From NCBI GenBank assembly GCA_017462615.1, contig JAFTQT010000046.1, forward strand, positions 26,892 to 90,891: DNA of 64,000 nucleotides, written 5' to 3'. Shown one piece after another: positions 768 to 9,307 of the stretch. A program made the position numbers and the translations under genes. The DNA comes from Clostridia bacterium (GTDB taxonomy: Bacteria > Bacillota > Clostridia > Oscillospirales > CAG-272). The notes under the pieces were generated by a model. The model was not told the DNA's origin. It was given only the letters and a program-made list of their open reading frames with translations, and did not search any database. Position 1 is the stretch's first letter; each line of letters opens with the position of its first letter.

Positions 768-1037
768 ATGCAAAACTTTGAGAACCGCAGCCGTCCGGAG
801 CAGCTGGGGCATTATATCACGCGCAACAAGGCGACCGTGCGTGATGCAGCAGCTTATTTTGGGATCAGTAAAAGCACGGTACATAAGGATGTGACCGTGG
901 AGCTTGCCAAACAAAACTACGGTTTGTTTTTGGAGGTAAACGGAATCTTGCAGTTCAACAAAAAGGAAAGGCACCTACGCGGAGGAGAGGCTACGCGTAA
1001 AAAATACGAGGAGGCAAAGAAAAGGGGAAGGCGTTGA
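768..1037 (+). CDS. spoIIID: Sporulation transcriptional regulator SpoIIID
   Basis: FGISKSTVHKDVT helix-turn-helix and C-terminal RHLRGGEATRKKY closely match my recollection of B. subtilis SpoIIID. I chose ATG 768 (89 aa, similar N-terminal length to SpoIIID) over the GTG at 735. Confidence 0.9.
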   Translation: MQNFENRSRPEQLGHYITRNKATVRDAAAYFGISKSTVHKDVTVELAKQNYGLFLEVNGILQFNKKERHLRGGEATRKKYEEAKKRGRR

Positions 1038-1058: not shown

Positions 1059-1094
1059 CAATACACGAAATTATACAAAATGCAAATTTTGTAT

Positions 1095-1127
1095 AAAAAA
1101 GGGAATAAAAAACGCCCCAATAGGGGC
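1095..1127 (-). terminator. Orphan terminator-like hairpin plus T-run (minus strand)
   Basis: GCCCC-aata-GGGGC (1114-1127). On the minus strand it is followed by GTTTTTTATTCCCTTTTTT. No annotated minus-strand gene lies upstream of it. The stem is only 5 bp. Confidence 0.35.
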
Positions 1128-1283: not shown

Positions 1284-1650
1284 TTGCCGCTAAAAATTTT
1301 TGTTGGCAACGGACTCTCCATTATCCGCATGAAAAATTTTTGTTCTACATGTTTGCGTAGCACGATCACCTCTGAATGACATTAAAAATTTTTTGTTGCA
1401 ACGGACACTTCATTGTCGAGCGCTAAAATTTTGGATCTGTGTTTTCGTCCTGCGCGATTTTGTTCGGACGACGTTAAAAATTTTTTATTGCAACGGACTC
1501 TTCATCGTTAAGCGCTATTATTTTCACTCCGCATTTTTGAGAAATTGCGCATTTTATCCAGGCTATCATAGGCAGGTGAAATTTATTTTTTACCGCGATG
1601 GACTCTCCATCATTTTTCTCTAAAATTTTGAGTGCCCATGTGATTCGGCA
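1284..1650. repeat. Degenerate bipartite tandem repeat array, 4 units of about 92 bp
   Basis: Motif TTAAAAATTTTTTGTTGCAACGGACNCTTCAT occurs with GGAC cores at 1311, 1403, 1495 and 1600. Copies at 1382-1423 and 1474-1515 match at 37 of 42 positions. A second motif, TAAAATTTTG, is interleaved at about 1331, 1424, 1517 and 1621. Confidence 0.75.
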
Positions 1651-1796
1651 TTTCTCTCTCCGCGCTCCCCATGTCAAATTCCCTCCAATATGATTTTGTA
1701 TAATTTTCAAGCTAAAAAGCTGCGTTATTTTTTTGTTCCAATCCACCAAAAAAGATCGCTTCTTTCTGTATCAAATGCCGAATTTTCAAAAAGTAT

Positions 1797-1825
1797 TTGC
1801 TTTGCTGACAAAGTTATGTTATACT
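1797..1825 (+). promoter_or_regulatory. Sigma-A-type promoter candidate for the 1923 gene
   Basis: TTGCTT (1797-1802), 17 nt, TATACT (1820-1825), with an extended TG at 1817-1818. Confidence 0.4.
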
Positions 1826-1922: not shown

Positions 1923-2351
1923 ATGGCCATCAAAATGCGTGTTCTGTACGCTTCCAACAAGAAAAAGATCGTCTCTATGGCACAGATGATCAAGGCAGAG
2001 TTCGACCTGCCTGTGAACGCTGTAGACAAAATCGAGCAGCCCGCTTATCCCTGTGATAAGGAGCGCATCGTATTCCTGATGTTCTCCCTGAAGGGCGAGC
2101 CCAGCGACGTGGTACGTCGTTTCTGCGGTGAGCTGAACAAGGGTCGCGCCAACAACGTGGCACTGATCGTTGACGGCAATGAGGCCGCTGCCAACAAGAT
2201 GAAGGAGATCCTCTCCGCTGCCGGTACTTCTGTGGCCGACGAGGTATTCTATGTAAAAACCTCCTTCCTTTCCTTCCTGGATTCCATCACTCCCGAGGAA
2301 AAGGAAGCTCTGCTTGCCTACGCGCATCGTATCGTGGACAACCTGCAGTAA
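1923..2351 (+). CDS. Hypothetical protein (possibly flavodoxin-like fold)
   Basis: ORF-track frame 1890..2351. I chose ATG 1923, 8 nt after GGAGG (1910-1914). No family motif recognised. Confidence 0.65.
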   Translation: MAIKMRVLYASNKKKIVSMAQMIKAEFDLPVNAVDKIEQPAYPCDKERIVFLMFSLKGEPSDVVRRFCGELNKGRANNVALIVDGNEAAANKMKEILSAAGTSVADEVFYVKTSFLSFLDSITPEEKEALLAYAHRIVDNLQ

Positions 2352-2423
2352 TATTTGATTTTCCAAAGTCGCGTCGGCCTCTTCCCAGAAGCCAACGCGA
2401 CTTATTGGTTTCCGACAACAAAT

Positions 2424-2463
2424 AATGCCCCCGGCGCATAACTCCTTATGCGCCGGGGGCATT
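2424..2463. terminator. Bidirectional terminator hairpin between convergent genes
   Basis: Perfect 18-bp stem AATGCCCCCGGCGCATAA / TTATGCGCCGGGGGCATT with loop CTCC, between the stops at 2351 (+) and 2482 (-). Confidence 0.7.
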
Positions 2464-2481
2464 AAAAGTTTTAACAAAGCA

Positions 2482-2901
2482 TTACAAATTCATATACTTT
2501 TCGATCAGTGCATCAAATTGTTCTGCATTGCAGATAAAACGGGAGTTGCGACCAACAAAGCGACCATCTTCATCATATCGCATATGCTTGGATTCTATAG
2601 CGGAAATGATGTCGTATTCGCCATTTTCAAAAGTGATTACAAAACACTTTTTTCTGGGATACTTTAGGCTCCCTCCATATTTGGTCATTTCTAAATTTTC
2701 AATATCGCTGTATAACTGTTCGATAACATCCAAGCCCAATTCTTTTAGAACCGTATAAATATACGCATCTTCTGCCTCTACGATTTCAATTTTGGTTACA
2801 CACGAGGCGTCCTTTTCAAATTCCCAATGATAAATCGTATTATCTTTACAACCGGAACAAAGTATGACCACACAGAATAGGATTATCAAAAATCGTTTCA
2901 T
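2482..2901 (-). CDS. Hypothetical lipoprotein
   Basis: N-terminus MKRFLIILFCVVILCSGC is a signal peptide plus lipobox (L-C-S-G-C). The gene is AT-rich (33% G+C in a sampled line). Confidence 0.7.
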   Translation of the reverse strand: MKRFLIILFCVVILCSGCKDNTIYHWEFEKDASCVTKIEIVEAEDAYIYTVLKELGLDVIEQLYSDIENLEMTKYGGSLKYPRKKCFVITFENGEYDIISAIESKHMRYDEDGRFVGRNSRFICNAEQFDALIEKYMNL

Positions 2902-3001
2902 AATCTACCTCCACAATAATCAAGCTTTGAAATGAGGGCTTAATCAACTCGGCCAAATCCATTATACCACAAAGCTCTCATTTTGTCAAATTTTCCCCTA
3001 T

Positions 3002-3027
3002 GCCTGCCGTTTGGCGGGCGCTTTTTT
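3002..3027 (+). terminator. Orphan terminator-like hairpin
   Basis: GCCTGCC-gttt-GGCGGGC (one G-U pair), then GC and TTTTTT. It lies between divergent genes with no plus-strand gene directly upstream. Confidence 0.35.
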
Positions 3028-3088
3028 GTTCATTTACGCTTTCCTGCATTTCCAGCGCCGTTTTTTTGCAAAAAAACGCTCAAGAGTG

Positions 3089-3117
3089 TTGCTATATCCG
3101 CTTTTTTATGCTATAAT
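3089..3117 (+). promoter_or_regulatory. Sigma-A-type promoter candidate
   Basis: TTGCTA (3089-3094), 17 nt, TATAAT (3112-3117), with TGc directly upstream of the -10. Confidence 0.5.
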
Positions 3118-3150
3118 AAGATATTACATTACTATTAAGTGAGGTATCCC

Positions 3151-4365
3151 ATGAAATATTTTGTTCTCATACCGGACGGCATGGCCGACGAGTCCATTGC
3201 CACTCTGCAAGATAAGACTCCCATGGAAGCAGCAAACAAGCCCTGTATGGACGCGCTGGCCAAAACCGCCTTTGTAGGCACGGTCTCCAACGTACCGGAG
3301 GGCATGGTGCCCGAAAGCGACACCGCCAATCTTGCCATTCTTTCCTACGATCCCAAGACCTATTCCAAGGGTCGCTCTCCCCTGGAAGCCGTCAGCATGG
3401 GCATCGAAATGCAACCCGACGAGACCGCTTACCGCTGCAACGTAGTTACCCTCAGCGACGAGGGCGAGGATTACGACGACAAGATCATCCTTGACCACAG
3501 CGCCGACGAGATCACCACCGCCGAGGCTGATCAGCTGATCAAGGCTCTGCAAGCGCATTTCGGCAACGAGAGCCGCAAATTTTATACCGGCGTCAGCTAC
3601 CGCCATTGCCTCATCCGCAAAAACGGCAACGACACCTATCCCTTTATGCGTCCCCACGACATTCTTGGAAAGCGTATTGGCGAATATCTGCCTGCCAAGG
3701 AGGGCGACGGTCGCGAGTTTTACGACCTGATGCGGGAAAGCTTTGACATTTTGAATCATCATCCCGTCAACGAGGCGCGGAGAGCCCGCGGTCTGAAGCC
3801 AGCCAACTCCGCCTGGTTCTGGAGCCCCGGCAAAAAGCCGCAGCTCCCCTCCTTCCGTGAAAAATGGGGGCTTGGTGCCGCCGTGATTTCCGCCGTTGAC
3901 CTCATCAAGGGTATCGGCCTTTGCGCCGGTATGCGCTCTATTGACGTGGAGGGTGCCACCGGCAACGTACACACCAATTACGATGGCAAGGCTGCGGCTG
4001 CCATTGAGGCCTTCCGCGACGGATGCGATTTCGTTTACGTCCACGTGGAGGCGCCCGACGAGTGCGGCCACCGTGCGGAGCTCGAAAACAAGGTACGCTC
4101 CATTGAGTTGATCGATTCCAAGATCCTTGCCCCTGTGCTTGCATACCTAAAGGAGTGTGGCGAGGACTTCAAGGTCATGATCCTGCCCGATCACCCCACG
4201 CCCATCCGCCTGCGCACCCACACCATCGATCCCGTTCCCTTCCTCATTTATGCCTCCGATGCCACCTGCGAGGGCGTTTCCTGCTTCTCGGAGTGCACTG
4301 CCGCTGCCAAGCAGAACTACCTGCCAAACGGTTATCGGCTGCTTGAGTTACTCACGCAAAAATAA
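3151..4365 (+). CDS. Cofactor-independent phosphoglycerate mutase family protein (ApgM-like; 'proposed homoserine kinase' family)
   Basis: MKYFVLIPDGMADE...TPMEAANKPCMDALA...YVHVEAPDECGHRAE...ILPDHPTP is the archaeal-type iPGM/metalloenzyme pattern. ATG 3151 follows GTGAGG. Confidence 0.8.
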   Translation: MKYFVLIPDGMADESIATLQDKTPMEAANKPCMDALAKTAFVGTVSNVPEGMVPESDTANLAILSYDPKTYSKGRSPLEAVSMGIEMQPDETAYRCNVVTLSDEGEDYDDKIILDHSADEITTAEADQLIKALQAHFGNESRKFYTGVSYRHCLIRKNGNDTYPFMRPHDILGKRIGEYLPAKEGDGREFYDLMRESFDILNHHPVNEARRARGLKPANSAWFWSPGKKPQLPSFREKWGLGAAVISAVDLIKGIGLCAGMRSIDVEGATGNVHTNYDGKAAAAIEAFRDGCDFVYVHVEAPDECGHRAELENKVRSIELIDSKILAPVLAYLKECGEDFKVMILPDHPTPIRLRTHTIDPVPFLIYASDATCEGVSCFSECTAAAKQNYLPNGYRLLELLTQK

Positions 4366-4385
4366 TCTGCTATAAGGAGATTACT

Positions 4386-4982
4386 ATGTCAGAATCCAAG
4401 CAAAAAAATGCCTCGGTCAAAAAGCCCTTTGCTGTCGCGGCACTGGATTACGTGGAAATGTTCGTGCTGGCTACAGCCGTGGTCATACTGTTGCTGACCT
4501 TCTGCGCCCGGCTTTGCGTCGTAAGCGGTGATTCCATGAAAAACACGCTTTTCCACGGCCAGACCTTAGTCGTTTCCAATCTGTTTTATACACCGAAGTC
4601 CGGCGACATCATCGTGCTGCACCAGACGGGTGCCATTTACAACGAGCCTATCGTCAAGCGGGTCATTGCCACCGGCGGTCAGCACGTACGCATCGATTAT
4701 ATGAATAACAAGGTCTACGTCTCTGATGACGATGTCTTTACGGAGGACGAGATCATTGACGAAAGCAGTTACGCTTATTTTGATAAAGGAGGGCTCTGGA
4801 AGGAGGCTGCCAGCCTCACGCCTCCCGAGAATTTCGCCGTACCGGATGGTCACCTCTTTGTTTTGGGCGATAACCGCAACGTATCCGCCGACAGCCGTAC
4901 CGACGATATCGGTATGGTGGATGAACGCCGGGTACTGGGCAAGGTGCTTTTCCGCCTTGCGCCCTTTCAATCCTTTTCGTGA
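4386..4982 (+). CDS. lepB: Signal peptidase I
   Basis: N-terminal TM segment. Box B GDSMKNTL, box D VKRVIATGG and box E GDNRNVSADSR are present. Confidence 0.9.
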   Translation: MSESKQKNASVKKPFAVAALDYVEMFVLATAVVILLLTFCARLCVVSGDSMKNTLFHGQTLVVSNLFYTPKSGDIIVLHQTGAIYNEPIVKRVIATGGQHVRIDYMNNKVYVSDDDVFTEDEIIDESSYAYFDKGGLWKEAASLTPPENFAVPDGHLFVLGDNRNVSADSRTDDIGMVDERRVLGKVLFRLAPFQSFS

Positions 4983-4990
4983 GGTAAGCT

Positions 4991-5875
4991 ATGCCAACTG
5001 ATATCATACAATGGTTTCCCGGCCACATGGCCAAAACCAGACGACTGATAGAAGAAAATCTGAAGCACGTGGACGTCGTGATCGAGCTGCTGGATGCCCG
5101 TATCCCACAAAGCTCCCGCAACCCGGAGATCGAACGCCTCACCGCCGGAAAGCCCATCATCACCCTACTCAACAAATCCCAGCTGGCAGACCCTGCCGAA
5201 ACCGAAAAATGGGCGCGGCACTATACCGGAGAGGGGCGCATCTGCATCCCCTTTGATTGCGTTGGCAAAAAGGGTCTTGACAAGCTGATGCCTGCTATTC
5301 GTACCGTGCTTGCTGATAAAATTGAGCGTTACGAGCAAAAGGGCATGAGCGGCCGTCGCTTGAAGGCCATGGTCGTAGGTATTCCCAATGTGGGGAAATC
5401 CTCTCTGATCAATCTACTTGGAGGCACCAAAAAGGCCAAGGTAGAAAACCGTCCGGGCGTGACGCTCCGTCCTCAGTGGGTCTCTACGGACGCGGGGCTT
5501 GACTTGATGGATATGCCCGGCGTGCTTTGGCCTCGCTTTGACCACCGGGAAACCGGAGAAAATCTGGCCATTACCGGTGCCATCAAGGACGATGTGGTGG
5601 AGCTGCTGACCCTTGCTGTGACCCTTTGCCACAAGCTGCGCCGCGATTATCCCGATCAACTGGCTGCCCGCTATAAGCTCGACGTCGCTGAGGTAACGGG
5701 AGAACGCACAGACTACGAATTATTTGAATATATTGGCAAGAAACGCGGATTTCTCATCAGCGGCGGCGAGATCAACGAGGAGCGTACCGCCAATATGCTA
5801 TTAGACGAATTCCGCGCCGCCAAAATCGGCCGCATCACCCTGGACCGCATTCCGGAAGGAGGCCCTTCATGCTGA
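4991..5875 (+). CDS. rbgA: Ribosome biogenesis GTPase A (YlqF/RbgA)
   Basis: WFPGHMAKTRR start, circularly permuted GTPase motifs (LNKSQL, GIPNVGKSSLIN, DMPG), and the conserved position upstream of rnhB. Confidence 0.9.
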   Translation: MPTDIIQWFPGHMAKTRRLIEENLKHVDVVIELLDARIPQSSRNPEIERLTAGKPIITLLNKSQLADPAETEKWARHYTGEGRICIPFDCVGKKGLDKLMPAIRTVLADKIERYEQKGMSGRRLKAMVVGIPNVGKSSLINLLGGTKKAKVENRPGVTLRPQWVSTDAGLDLMDMPGVLWPRFDHRETGENLAITGAIKDDVVELLTLAVTLCHKLRRDYPDQLAARYKLDVAEVTGERTDYELFEYIGKKRGFLISGGEINEERTANMLLDEFRAAKIGRITLDRIPEGGPSC

Positions 5876-6468
5876 ATTACGAGCTGGAAGCAACCCTTGA
5901 GGCTGAGGGCTATACTGCCGTTTGCGGCGTGGATGAGGCGGGACGAGGCCCGCTCTGCGGTCCGGTAGCTGCCGCTGCCTGCATCCTGCCCACGGGTCTT
6001 GTGATCGAGGGGCTGAACGATTCCAAAAAGCTCACCGAGAAAAAGCGAGAGCTGCTTTACGACGAGATCTGCGAAAAGGCCATTGCCTATTGCGTAGTCC
6101 TCGGTAGCGTAGAGGAGATCAACGAAACTGATATTCTTTCCACCACGCTGCACGCCATGCGTCGCGCCATCGAGGGGCTTTCCGTCAAGGCGGATTACGC
6201 TCTCATTGACGGTAACATTACCCGCGGCTTTTCCCTGCCCTGCCGCGCCGTGGTGCATGGTGACGCCATCTCTCCCAGTATCGCAGCTGCCTCGATCCTG
6301 GCCAAGGTCACTCGTGATCGCATTTGTCTGGAGCTGGATGCCGCCCATCCGGAATACGGCATTGCCAAGCACAAGGGCTACGGCACCAAGGCACATATGG
6401 ATGCCTTACGCAAGCACGGTCCCTGTGAGATCTACCGCACCAAATTTATTCGTTTTCTTGACAAATGA
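5869..6468 (+). CDS. rnhB: Ribonuclease HII
   Basis: GVDEAGRGPLCGPV and LNDSKKL motifs. Overlaps the rbgA stop by 7 nt. Confidence 0.9.
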   Translation: MLNYELEATLEAEGYTAVCGVDEAGRGPLCGPVAAAACILPTGLVIEGLNDSKKLTEKKRELLYDEICEKAIAYCVVLGSVEEINETDILSTTLHAMRRAIEGLSVKADYALIDGNITRGFSLPCRAVVHGDAISPSIAAASILAKVTRDRICLELDAAHPEYGIAKHKGYGTKAHMDALRKHGPCEIYRTKFIRFLDK

Positions 6469-6866
6469 AAGCATACACCAGCCAAGAAATCGGAAAGATC
6501 GGCGAAAAGCTGGCCGCCCGCTATCTGAAGCGGCAAGGCTACCGCGTGCTGCATAAAAATCGCCATTTCGGCAAAAACGAGCTGGATCTGGTGGTTAAAA
6601 GCAAAACGCATATCGCCTTTGTGGAGGTCAAGACCCGCTCCTTTGAAAATGAAGGGGAAGCTATCACGCGTCCGGCACTTGCCGTAAATGCCGAAAAGCG
6701 TCGTCGCACCGTGGAAGCTGCCTTTGGATACCTGCACGCACATTCCACGCACCTCGTTCCGCGCTTCGACGTAGTGGAGGTCTATCTCAATCGTTCCCGT
6801 CGGATGAAGCCCTTCAAAATTCATCATATTCCCGACGCTTTTCGCGCCAACGGAGGGGTTCGATAA
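6465..6866 (+). CDS. YraN family (UPF0102) endonuclease-like protein
   Basis: GEKLAARYLKRQGYRVL...ELDLV...IAFVEVKTR pattern. ATGA overlap with the rnhB stop. Confidence 0.85.
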   Translation: MKAYTSQEIGKIGEKLAARYLKRQGYRVLHKNRHFGKNELDLVVKSKTHIAFVEVKTRSFENEGEAITRPALAVNAEKRRRTVEAAFGYLHAHSTHLVPRFDVVEVYLNRSRRMKPFKIHHIPDAFRANGGVR

Positions 6867-7805
6867 ATGAAGCTCATTGATTTTCATTGTGACACACCTG
6901 CCGCATTGTTTCGAAGCAAAGGGACGCTTCGCGTCAACCCAAAGCTGCAGGTCGATATCGAAAGAACCACCGTATTTGACGGCTACTGTCAAATAGCAGC
7001 CTGCTTTTGTCCATCGGCTCTTAATAACGAAGCGGGCTTTGCAATTGTGAAGCAGTATGCCGCCTATTTGCAAAGCGCCATTGCCGCCGAGCCCGATGCG
7101 ATGCTTATATCAAGCGGTAACGAAATGACAGCCACCATGGAAAGCGGAAAGCGTGCCTTTCTTCTTGCTACAGAGGATCTTCGCATTCTGAACGGCGATC
7201 TTTCCCGTGTCAAGCATCTACGGGAATTGGGGGTACGCTTTGCCACGTTGGTTTGGCGCGGCGTTTCCTGCATTGGAGGCGCCCACAACACGGACGAGGG
7301 TCTGTCCGCCTTCGGGCGGGAGGCGGTGACCGCGCTTCTTGAAAGCGGCATCGTGCCCGACGTTTCCCACGCCTCACGAGAAACGCTTCGTCAAACGGCA
7401 GAAATTTGCCACGCTCATAAAAAGCCCTTTGTGGCAACCCACTCCTGTGCCTTTGCGCTATGCTCTCACAGACGCAATCTAACGGATGAGGAGATTCGTC
7501 TGATTGCGGAAAGTGGCGGCGTCATTGGCGTCAATCTTTACCCGCCCTTCCTTCGCGCGGACGCACCCGCTACGCTTTCGGATATTACAGCACACGTGCG
7601 ACATCTGTTCCGTGTAGCCGGTACGGATGCCATAGTCATGGGAACCGATCTTGACGGCGTTGACCTGCTGCCGGAGGGCATCAAAGACGTAGCTGACCTT
7701 CCCCAAATTGTCGACGCCATGCAAAAAGCCGGCTTTACCACCAAGGAAATCGACAGGCTCTTTTACCAAAACGGCCTGCAATTTATAAAAAATCATCTCA
7801 ACTGA
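6867..7805 (+). CDS. Dipeptidase (M19 membrane-dipeptidase family)
   Basis: IDFHCDT, GLSAFGREAV...VPDVSHAS, PFVATHSCA...HRRNLTDEEI and GGVIGVN match the M19 motif order. Confidence 0.78.
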   Translation: MKLIDFHCDTPAALFRSKGTLRVNPKLQVDIERTTVFDGYCQIAACFCPSALNNEAGFAIVKQYAAYLQSAIAAEPDAMLISSGNEMTATMESGKRAFLLATEDLRILNGDLSRVKHLRELGVRFATLVWRGVSCIGGAHNTDEGLSAFGREAVTALLESGIVPDVSHASRETLRQTAEICHAHKKPFVATHSCAFALCSHRRNLTDEEIRLIAESGGVIGVNLYPPFLRADAPATLSDITAHVRHLFRVAGTDAIVMGTDLDGVDLLPEGIKDVADLPQIVDAMQKAGFTTKEIDRLFYQNGLQFIKNHLN

Positions 7806-7822
7806 TCAAAAGGAGTTTACTT

Positions 7823-9307
7823 ATGAAGTTTCAAAGCACCAGAGATAAAAGCGCTGCTAAATTTTCCGCCGCAGAGGTCATCAAGCAAGGCCTTGCTGCC
7901 GACGGCGGTCTGTTCGTTCCCGAAAGCCTGCCTACGCTGACCGAGACTGACATCAAGGCTCTTTGCGCAATGGATTATCCGGAGCGTGCCGCCACCGTTC
8001 TCGGCAAATTTCTGACCGACTATACCGCCGAGGAGTTGCTGGCCGATTGCCGCGCCGCATATGCGGAAAGCTCCTTTGTTGGCGGGGCCGCCCCCTTGCA
8101 CAAAATGGACGATACGATGTATTCCCTGGAGCTGTGGCACGGCCCCACGGCAGCCTTTAAGGATATGGCGCTGCAGATCATGCCTCGCCTGCTTTCCCGC
8201 GCATTGGTAAAGACCGGTGAGGAACGTACGGCTCTGATTTTGGTGGCCACCTCCGGCGATACCGGAAAGGCAGCTCTTGAAGGCTACAAGGACATTGAGC
8301 GCATCAAGATCATGGTATTTTATCCCGTGGATGGCGTCAGCACCGTGCAGAAGCTCCAAATGCAGACACAGACGGGTGATAATGTCAACGTCACCGCCAT
8401 CAAGGGTAATTTTGATGATGCCCAGACTGGCGTCAAGAAGATCTTTGGCAACGCAGAAACCGCAAAGAAGTTGGACGGGATGGGCTACTTCCTCTCCTCC
8501 GCCAATTCCATTAACTGGGGACGTCTCGCACCGCAGATCGTCTATTACGTTTCCGCTTACTGCGATCTGCTCACCAATGGTGCGCTGAAATACGGTGAGC
8601 CTATGAACGTAACGGTACCCACCGGCAACTTCGGCAATATTTTCGCCGCCTATCTAGCAAAGAAAATGGGTCTGCCTATCGATAAGCTGATCTGCGCATC
8701 CAACAAAAATCATATTTTGACCGATTTTCTCACCACGGGTACCTATGACCGCAACCGTGATTTTTACCTGACCATGTCCCCCTCCATGGATATTCTTATT
8801 TCCAGCAATTTGGAGCGTCTTCTCTATTTCGTTGCGGGCCCTGAGCGCACCGCTGCCTACATGAAGCAGCTCAATGAAAACGGTATCTATACCGTTGACG
8901 AAGATATCAAAAACGCCATTTCTCAAAGCTTCTATGGCTACTTTGCTGACGAGCAGCAAACCGCCGAAACCATTCGCCGTACGATGGATCGTTATCACTA
9001 TCTCATTGATACGCACACGGCCGTAGCCATTTCTGCTGCCGAACAATACGTAGAAGAAACCGGTGACCGCAAGCCGATGGTGATCGCTTCCACGGCCAGC
9101 CCCTACAAATTCGCCGCCGACGTGTACGCCTCTCTTTACGAGGGCACCTCTGCCTCTCCTCTGACCGCACTGGACGACCTCTCCGCCAAGAGTGGCACCG
9201 AGATCACCTATCCTCTCCGCGGCATTGGCGAGCGTACGGTCCGCTTCACCGACGTGGTAGAGGCGAGCGAAATGCAGGACGCCGTATTTGCTTATCTCGC
9301 AAAATAA
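7823..9307 (+). CDS. thrC: Threonine synthase (long form)
   Basis: MKFQSTR...GLAADGGLFVPE N-terminus, PLP-lysine motif PTAAFKDMALQ and TSGDTGKAA. Confidence 0.9.
   Translation: MKFQSTRDKSAAKFSAAEVIKQGLAADGGLFVPESLPTLTETDIKALCAMDYPERAATVLGKFLTDYTAEELLADCRAAYAESSFVGGAAPLHKMDDTMYSLELWHGPTAAFKDMALQIMPRLLSRALVKTGEERTALILVATSGDTGKAALEGYKDIERIKIMVFYPVDGVSTVQKLQMQTQTGDNVNVTAIKGNFDDAQTGVKKIFGNAETAKKLDGMGYFLSSANSINWGRLAPQIVYYVSAYCDLLTNGALKYGEPMNVTVPTGNFGNIFAAYLAKKMGLPIDKLICASNKNHILTDFLTTGTYDRNRDFYLTMSPSMDILISSNLERLLYFVAGPERTAAYMKQLNENGIYTVDEDIKNAISQSFYGYFADEQQTAETIRRTMDRYHYLIDTHTAVAISAAEQYVEETGDRKPMVIASTASPYKFAADVYASLYEGTSASPLTALDDLSAKSGTEITYPLRGIGERTVRFTDVVEASEMQDAVFAYLAK

Follow-up and report, generated by a model that had tools for sequence, protein, structure and literature searches.

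What kind of element is the imperfect tandem repeat that lies downstream of spoIIID in this stretch of a Clostridia bacterium genome (contig JAFTQT010000046.1; the whole 64,000-nt stretch is referred to as the window), and does it act as coding sequence, as RNA or as DNA? Comparison with related loci revealed that the array is a real conserved element without a described counterpart, built from copies of a non-coding module that accompanies the next gene downstream, which encodes a 142-residue protein. With some reserve, we favour the reading that the modules are recognised as DNA by a protein.

Layout and conservation of the module

The intergenic gap between spoIIID and the 142-aa gene (1038-1922) measures 885 nt and has a GC content of 38%, compared with 51% window-wide, in agreement with the original prediction, which had placed the array in an AT-rich gap of about 880 bp downstream of spoIIID. 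A repeat search of the window detected one four-copy family in this gap (1296-1350, 1388-1442, 1480-1534 and 1585-1639), the copies being 62-76% identical to the reference copy. The GGAC cores previously assigned to 1311, 1403, 1495 and 1600 are indeed present there, with spacings of 92, 92 and 105 nt between the four units; the claimed five differences over 42 positions between copies 2 and 3 were confirmed, and the shorter second motif of each copy was located at 1332, 1425, about 1517 (degenerate, TATTATTTT) and 1622. The units, with their matches to a sequence profile (nhmmer) and to a covariance model (CM), are as follows.

1284..1650, plus strand: whole array, four units with periods of 92, 92 and 105 nt
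1290..1347, plus strand: unit 1, left box 1292-1301 (AAAAATTTTT), core CAACGGACTCTCCATTATC, right box 1332-1341 (AAAAATTTTT); nhmmer 1287-1352, E=1e-12; CM 1282-1362, 63.7 bits
1382..1439, plus strand: unit 2, left box 1384-1394, core CAACGGACACTTCATTGTC, right box 1425-1432; nhmmer E=9e-14; CM 68.3 bits
1474..1531, plus strand: unit 3, left box 1476-1486, core CAACGGACTCTTCATCGTT, degenerate right box TATTATTTT at about 1517; nhmmer E=1e-12; CM 64.9 bits
1579..1636, plus strand: unit 4, degenerate left box AAATTTATTTTTT, core GATGGACTCTCCATCATT, right box 1622-1629; nhmmer E=1e-10; CM 53.6 bits

Pairwise identity among the units ranges from 57 to 79%, the upper value being that of unit 3 with unit 2, and the core of unit 4, GATGGACTCTCCATCATT, is a perfect 6-3-6 palindrome (GATGGA-CTC-TCCATC). 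With up to three mismatches, the 29-mer consensus has two matches in the window and none in 100 shuffles. Tandem Repeats Finder, proposed earlier as a check, did not report the array, whose copies have diverged too far for it.

The 31 units from the window and its relatives could be aligned essentially without gaps over a module with a fixed length of 58 bases and a tripartite build (A/T box, core and second A/T box). In order, it comprises an A4-5T4-5 box, 9 variable nt, the core (A)CGGACTCTCCATCGTT, 7 variable nt, a second A4-5T4 box, NAAYGC and a T-run, and the consensus of the 31 units reads CG-n-T-n-AAAATTTTT, 9 variable nt, (A)CG-n-AC-n-CT-n-CATCGTTTT, about 5 variable nt and AAAAATTTT-n-AAYGC-n-T-n-TTTT. 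All 18 alignment columns that are at least 90% conserved fall within the two A/T boxes and the core; information content is highest in both boxes and at the AC, CT and CATCGT of the core, and the centres of box, core and box lie approximately 20 bp apart. The distance between unit starts is loose, varying from 53 to 224 nt across species.

Relatives were collected by searching species-representative genomes with the 142-aa protein and by adding contigs of remoter homologues, which resulted in approximately 20 related loci from metagenome-assembled genomes of uncultured Oscillospiraceae/'Eubacteriales'. Absence from every relative, together with a lack of transcription, had been named among the outcomes that would refute the original prediction; instead, the module was found in about 12 related species, in one to five copies, at the same place and in constant orientation upstream of the 142-aa gene. 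The copies found by the profile are listed below.

Five copies: L011 (sister species)
Three copies: L012, L014, L017, L022 and L081
Two copies: L083 and L089
One copy: L015, L019 and L020

Only partial units were present in L013, L077 and L087. No units were detected in L023-L030, whose 142-aa homologue has 50-55% protein identity, or in some closer relatives (L016, L018, L079, L085 and L088). All significant matches in the 317 kb searched, which included the relatives' flanks, fall in the interval from spoIIID to the 142-aa gene and share the strand of the latter, and neither the 64-kb window nor the 317 kb has a copy outside this gap. The units were detected with E-values of 1e-10 to 1e-15 even in species that share just 66-89% identity in the 142-aa protein. 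It is the 142-aa gene, not spoIIID, that they track: L077 has a different upstream gene, and in L089, where an inserted prophage holds spoIIID and the units 6 kb apart, the units still stand beside the 142-aa gene.

This conservation stands out from its surroundings, as blastn between species aligns no DNA of the gap except a palindrome, designated P1 and discussed below. Identity over the array region is 43-64% even between the window and its sister species L011, compared with approximately 80% for the flanking genes, and units 1, 2 and 4 of the window keep recognisable L011 counterparts at 71-76% identity (72% for unit 2 with L011 unit c, 71% for unit 4 with L011 unit e). The module is therefore under purifying selection on both its sequence and its internal spacing. 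Beyond these loci, 46 metagenome matches to CTCCATCGTT-N7-AAAATTTT included no full unit and all look like chance, two scans of IMG/VR for unit patterns yielded 0 and 1 matches (the single match being weak and partial), and a string search of the literature for the core sequence returned nothing relevant.

Variation was also observed within the species. Ten metagenome contigs encode an identical SpoIIID, and those that span the gap have either four units (L003 and L005) or five (L002). In L002 the additional 92-nt unit separates unit 2 from unit 3, L001 shows an N-gap of the corresponding size, and the difference in copy number between strains amounts to exactly one 92-nt period. One-nucleotide insertions or deletions (indels) inside units also distinguish strains, in the right box of unit 4 in L003 and within the core of unit 4 in L005. 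Several contigs of the same species end within or just ahead of the array.

Peptide, RNA or DNA

Small peptides are one function that the units might suggest. As previously described, three window units read ...(N/D)(D/N)(G/E)ES(V/I)AxKNF-stop on the minus strand, the ES(V)A.KNF string of the original prediction. Its statement that only the open reading frame (ORF) 1474..1749 has a start codon was wrong, since the minus-strand ORF 1290..1382 through unit 1 begins with ATG; this start overlaps the unit 2 stop as TAATG, and 31 codons less the 1-nt overlap give 92 nt. The plus strand offers a 17-codon frame, (M/L)KIFxxxGLSIVFxKNF-stop, in which 5 of the 31 units have an ATG and 8 an in-frame TAA. 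Against these points, most units of relatives have a stop 4-13 codons upstream on the minus strand and no start codon, unit spacings are not multiples of 3, and the strain-specific indels would shift the frame. In addition, the two identical A/T boxes fall in different frames (KIL/KIF versus KNF), as expected for a conserved DNA motif and not for a peptide. We give almost no credence to the possibility that the units encode ...NDGESVAxKNF or the plus-strand peptide, and tandem small-ORF genes were rejected because start, frame and stop are not conserved across homologues. Judged by these comparisons, the units are non-coding on both strands, which upholds the earlier description of the array as most likely a non-coding repeat.

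A separate minus-strand ORF enters the array from the right (1686-1610), led by a strong Shine-Dalgarno sequence (GGAGGG) and an ATG. It has 20 aa in the window and 65 aa in strain L003 (4706-4903) after a 1-nt deletion, and L011 has a 30-aa minus-strand ORF at approximately 3740-3650 that starts from a differently positioned Shine-Dalgarno sequence and ATG; neither length nor position is conserved among the three.

A structured RNA locus was one of the possibilities raised originally, and no detectable RNA-structure signal emerged. The two A/T boxes are self-complementary and are always able to pair; nevertheless, RNAalifold predicted no consensus pair for the unit alignment. In a 19-pair hairpin model, 76.5-76.7% of the cells pair, compared with 74.9% in shuffled alignments, and the covariation score of 0.164-0.170 (shuffled, 0.137-0.146) was equalled by 11-17 of 500 shuffles, which is within the range for related sequences lacking structure. 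Of the six flanking pairs beyond the boxes, four (6-66, 7-65, 9-63 and 11-61) fail to pair in about half of the units. Duplex energy shows no strand preference (15 versus 16 units, p = 0.75), neither strand has an excess of G-U over A-C, and the window array folds no better than shuffled sequences (z-scores of -1.1 and -0.1), its own stems being just 5-11 bp of A-U. The suggested Rfam search produced no family either: the best match over the window array was RF01934 (16 bits against a gathering score of 50), and the gaps of ten relatives' loci gave no match except to a microRNA model (31.6 bits against a gathering score of 100). No promoter 5' of the array or terminator 3' of it recurs across species. 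Taken together, a hairpin between the two boxes has no significant statistical support.

Two hairpins outside the units were also noted. The orphan minus-strand element described as terminator-like is present as a GC-rich hairpin with a T-run at 1127-1114; it is found in the same species (with a variant stem in L005) and is not conserved in L011, L012 or L013. Directly 5' of the first unit in L012 (289-318) and L081 (1800-1818) lies another hairpin, with stem GCGTTGC/GCAACGC and a T-run, which echoes GTTGCAAC within the units of the window.

Since the signal resides in sequence and not in pairing, and has no strand asymmetry, recognition of double-stranded DNA by a protein is favoured. The reading that we tentatively prefer is that the array represents protein-binding modules in the far-upstream region of the flavodoxin-like 142-aa gene. 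The modules would be cis-acting DNA recognised by sequence, not by an RNA fold, and the recogniser would be a DNA-binding protein or a nucleoprotein complex. Each 58-bp module would offer three patches, the A4-5T4-5 box, the core ACnCTnCATCGT and the A4-5T4 box with NAAYGC, whose centres, approximately 20 bp or two helical turns apart, could face one side of the helix. Gain and loss of modules by unequal recombination may generate the observed one to five copies and their loose spacing, and the number of bound modules would tune expression from, or insulate, the downstream promoter, the 142-aa gene being the presumed target.

Tandem upstream arrays of operator or activator sites, multi-site nucleoprotein regulatory regions such as those of the Lrp/AsnC and RemA types, resemble this arrangement in having several A/T-flanked motif copies before one promoter, in variable number and with sequence alone conserved, but the window modules, at 58 bp, are long, stand 160-540 nt away from the promoter, are not helically phased and match no cognate regulator or consensus. 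The last three differences weigh against the protein-binding reading itself, as do several other observations. The distance, measured to a promoter predicted from sequence, is far for a bacterial operator; unit-to-unit spacing lacks helical phasing; no known operator consensus fits the units and no cognate binding protein was found. The searches with the profile and the CM covered the 317 kb mentioned above, so other genomic copies, and with them a dispersed REP- or MITE-like repeat, are possible. Within the species, polymorphism in the units (5 of 236 sites) is not lower than outside them (16 of 649 sites), a comparison of low power. Finally, the T-run 3' of the right box is moderately conserved and would suit an RNA hairpin or terminator, and boxes and flanks together could form helices of 13-17 bp in six relatives (L014, L015, L017, L019, L020 and L083), with flanks that vary by unit (CGTTA/TAACG, GCATTT/AAATGC and GAATG/TATTC).

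The latter two features also speak for the alternative that the array acts as plus-strand RNA, in which the A-U-rich hairpin of the two boxes would present the CU-rich core CUCUCCAUCG, followed by a U-run. The units might then serve as weak terminators or insulators that separate spoIIID, or prophages inserted at P1, from the flavodoxin-like gene; alternatively, they might make up a modular non-coding RNA, its repeats titrating a protein or Shine-Dalgarno sequences. The single orientation of all units relative to the gene, the inner ACGG/TCGT pairs on the same dyad axis (70-75% paired) and an anti-Shine-Dalgarno-like CUCC in the core are consistent with this alternative. However, the missing consensus structure, the chance-level covariation, the lack of G-U bias, the unremarkable folding and short stems of the window array, and the absence of recurrent transcription signals and of an Rfam family all stand against it, and we consider it possible but unlikely. 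Much less probable still is a neutral, decaying local duplication without function. The entire 92-nt period is homologous between units 2 and 3 (72% identity), beyond the two motifs, copy number is polymorphic and polymorphism in the units is not reduced, and these points speak for it; yet the same motif and internal spacing are kept in about 12 species while the rest of the gap is unalignable and the array region is so divergent even in the sister species. Because the motif has survived amid unalignable intergenic DNA, the unconstrained decayed cassette duplication entertained by the original prediction is disfavoured, and the cross-species conservation largely refutes neutrality.

Several known repeat systems share features with the array. 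Repetitive extragenic palindromic (REP) sequences and bacterial interspersed mosaic elements share with the array an imperfect dyad symmetry, a position between genes, clustering in tandem with varying copy number, and a tendency of contigs to break there, but REPs are dispersed in tens to hundreds of copies, whereas the window unit occurs at one locus in 317 kb and is anchored to the same gene in different species. Type III toxin-antitoxin systems (ToxI/CptI-like) are similar in that tandem repeats, here one to five, immediately precede a small conserved gene and share its orientation; their ToxI-type repeats are contiguous, near-identical and 34-45 nt long, whereas the window units are 57-79% identical and irregularly spaced. 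Antitoxin repeats of this type were rejected in view of the irregular spacing (53-224 nt) and of a downstream protein that is flavodoxin-like, has its own predicted promoter and matches neither ToxN nor any Pfam or PADLOC defence family. Clustered regularly interspaced short palindromic repeats (CRISPR) resemble the array in the alternation of a conserved segment of about 30 nt with more variable ones of about 60 nt and in the gain or loss of one period between strains, but the window repeats are imperfect, the 'spacers' are mutually homologous (72%) and the period is irregular in relatives. A CRISPR array was rejected on the grounds of the unit divergence, the homologous inter-motif segments and the null result of Tandem Repeats Finder, and no cas gene is present among the flanking genes of the window and the relatives examined.

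Individual binding sites (SpoIIID, Rex, CodY, Spo0A, ARG box, CIRCE and DnaA box) were compared with the units by eye. The GGAC cores had been likened to a SpoIIID half-site. In B. subtilis, the SpoIIID box is reportedly WWRRACAR-Y. The C. difficile box is KRTAACARK (PMC5025042). The best matches by eye reach 6-7 of 9 positions in an A/T-rich context, GGACTC and GGACAC fail the ACAR part, and the units stay with the 142-aa gene where spoIIID is absent or 6 kb away; neither by consensus nor by linkage is an array of SpoIIID sites supported. Rex half-sites fit by eye with a spacing that is 2 bp too long, CodY has one half-site only, and Spo0A, ARG box, CIRCE (controlling inverted repeat of chaperone expression) and DnaA box do not fit, a single DnaA-box-like site (8 of 9 positions, TTATCCGCA) being visible. 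A sigma-70 promoter within the unit (GGACW-16-TAAAAT in units 2 and 4) loses its -10 element in relatives by eye (AAAAAT/TAAAAA), and the sporulation-sigma, extracytoplasmic function (ECF) and sigma-54 consensus sequences have no consistent fit. A likeness between the f1 phage origin (TGGACTCT..., AAAAATTTAACGCG) and the core with the right box is no more than chance would produce. A replication origin or iterons were rejected as well: GC skew is negative throughout the window (-0.02 to -0.13) and on both sides of the gap, large ORFs are in mixed orientation, and no origin or terminus signal was seen in the 64 kb.

A broader proposal would regard the 58-nt module as an undescribed, lineage-specific nucleic-acid element of gut Oscillospiraceae with a dedicated ligand, either a regulator-operator system for a divergent flavodoxin or a multi-module non-coding RNA (sponge or insulator) beside an integration hotspot of small Rep-encoding phages, buffering a conserved gene cluster; we regard this as doubtful. 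Conserved elements of the non-coding kind have hardly been explored in uncultured gut Clostridia, and a sharply defined, alignable module of 58 nt that is under clear selection and tied to one gene in a dozen species offers a tractable handle on a new regulator-operator pair or RNA. If it proves to be merely a far-upstream operator cluster, it would be an ordinary kind of thing with a new sequence.

The palindrome P1 and mobile DNA

The 11-mer ATTTTGTATAA that had been reported to bracket the array does occur at 1086-1096 and 1693-1703; its left copy is one arm of a perfect palindrome, with the inverted copy at 1071-1081, and belongs to this separate element.

1071..1105, no strand: palindrome P1, TTATACAAAAT-GCAA-ATTTTGTATAA (1071-1096) with a conserved tail, AAAAGGGAA
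1693..1703, plus strand: third, solitary P1 arm ATTTTGTATAA, the right bracket of the array

P1 is present in all examined relatives that contain the gap, including those without units, and its arms are constantly 15 nt apart. The solitary right arm also occurs in L002, L011 and L019, and variant or inverted copies in L012, L013, L079 and L087. P1 is distinct from the array and more widely conserved.

Mobile DNA is associated with P1 in several loci. In L089, an integrated element of about 6 kb (2340-8320) lies exactly at P1, between spoIIID and the array, and is flanked by a 22-nt direct repeat (GTTTTGTATAAAAAAGGGGAGT). Its nine leftward genes, none of them a recognisable integrase, include those for a Rep_OBD protein (202 aa), a DNA methyltransferase-like protein, a 498-aa protein and several proteins of 56-74 aa, and the element has weak protein similarity to the 4.7-8.5-kb 'bajarodino' viruses from rodent faeces. 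Contig L004, with the identical SpoIIID, switches at the centre of P1 to unrelated GC-rich DNA, where another inserted element probably ends. Two other contigs, L006 and L007, terminate at P1. The foreign DNA of L004 (4316-4880) contains a promoter-like TTGACA...TATACT and a terminator-like hairpin. The 11-nt arms of P1, with varied 4-nt centres, were also found in 18 IMG/VR contigs compared with approximately 0.01 expected by rough estimate, among them an inovirus-like contig with Zot and a G2P-type Rep, in which the palindrome lies beside a tyrosine recombinase gene (L091), and a tailed-phage fragment (L103). These occurrences suggest that P1 is an insertion hotspot for mobile DNA.

The arm ATTTTGTATAA is identical to a XerC arm of Acinetobacter pdif sites (modules) (PMC12907356), and P1 shares with Xer/dif sites the 11-nt inverted arms around a short variable centre and the tyrosine recombinase gene next to the L091 palindrome. 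The L089 prophage, which is small, Rep-encoding and integrase-less and was inserted with duplication of the arm, also recalls integrative mobile elements exploiting Xer (IMEX). However, the arms of P1 are 'inside-out', with ATAA facing outward and not towards the centre, P1 has no XerD-like arm, and GC skew does not switch at the gap; P1 is accordingly not called a dif site here. P1 appears to be a landing site shared by small phages; if it is, this would explain why metagenome assemblies break there, and P1 could prove to be where phages without an integrase attach in this family.

Could the array itself be what a mobile module without genes carried to P1, or the scar that it left there? In that case the segment 1097-1692, bracketed by direct copies of ATTTTGTATAA, would be the insertion, and the units would serve such elements, or the recombination system acting at P1, as accessory or origin-like sites. 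The direct arm copies at 1086 and 1693, likewise seen in L002 and L011, the same arm around the L089 prophage, a second P1-like palindrome that closes the array in L013, the demonstrated insertion at P1, the identity of the arm with that of pdif, and the patchy occurrence of the array, in contrast to the universal P1, could be explained in this way. In L089 and L019, however, the second arm copy precedes the units, which leaves them beyond the right end of the bracket; neither the L089 prophage nor the 18 P1-bearing viral contigs contain a unit or core motif, and none came from the IMG/VR scans; and the units of the window and L011 look orthologous one-to-one, which suggests vertical inheritance. 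Such an insertion is quite improbable in our view, and a phage origin of the units was rejected given their absence from the prophage and the P1-carrying viral contigs.

Two further features adjoin P1. On the minus strand (1097-1070), the palindrome reads as a sigma-70-like promoter (TTTATA, 16 nt, TATAAT) aimed into the 3' end of spoIIID. Conservation of the palindrome gives L011 and L012 this promoter too, and it could drive an antisense transcript. In L022, a distinct dense tandem repeat of about 200 nt (2925-3133) follows right after the palindrome, with a 28-nt unit (GGGTTTTGCGTGTTTTTCCGTGTTTTTC) and sub-periods of 9-10 nt.

Neighbouring genes and the predicted promoter

768..1037, plus strand: spoIIID (PF12116, 98.5 bits), the usual but not obligatory upstream neighbour
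1797..1825, plus strand: promoter of the 142-aa gene read from the sequence, sigma-A-type (TTGCTT, 17 nt, TG-n-TATACT)
1923..2351, plus strand: 142-aa gene, flavodoxin-like fold, constant companion of the array

The Pfam match to PF12116 confirms the earlier assignment of spoIIID. The 142-aa protein matched no Pfam, NCBIfam or PADLOC family. Its AlphaFold2 model has a pLDDT (predicted local distance difference test) score of 88.4, and the best Foldseek matches in the PDB are short-chain flavodoxins, with TM (template modelling) scores of 0.62-0.67 at 12-17% identity; the modelled structure points to a flavodoxin-like domain.

The predicted promoter lies about 160 nt 3' of the last unit, and its motif, TTTGC...TGTTATACT, recurs in L012, L013, L016, L018 and L089. 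From the promoter region and 5' leader (1800-1922) through the 142-aa gene (1923-2351), DNA identity to L011 amounts to 92-99%, compared with approximately 80% for the neighbouring genes and 84% for SpoIIID at the protein level, which indicates unusual constraint or recent exchange.

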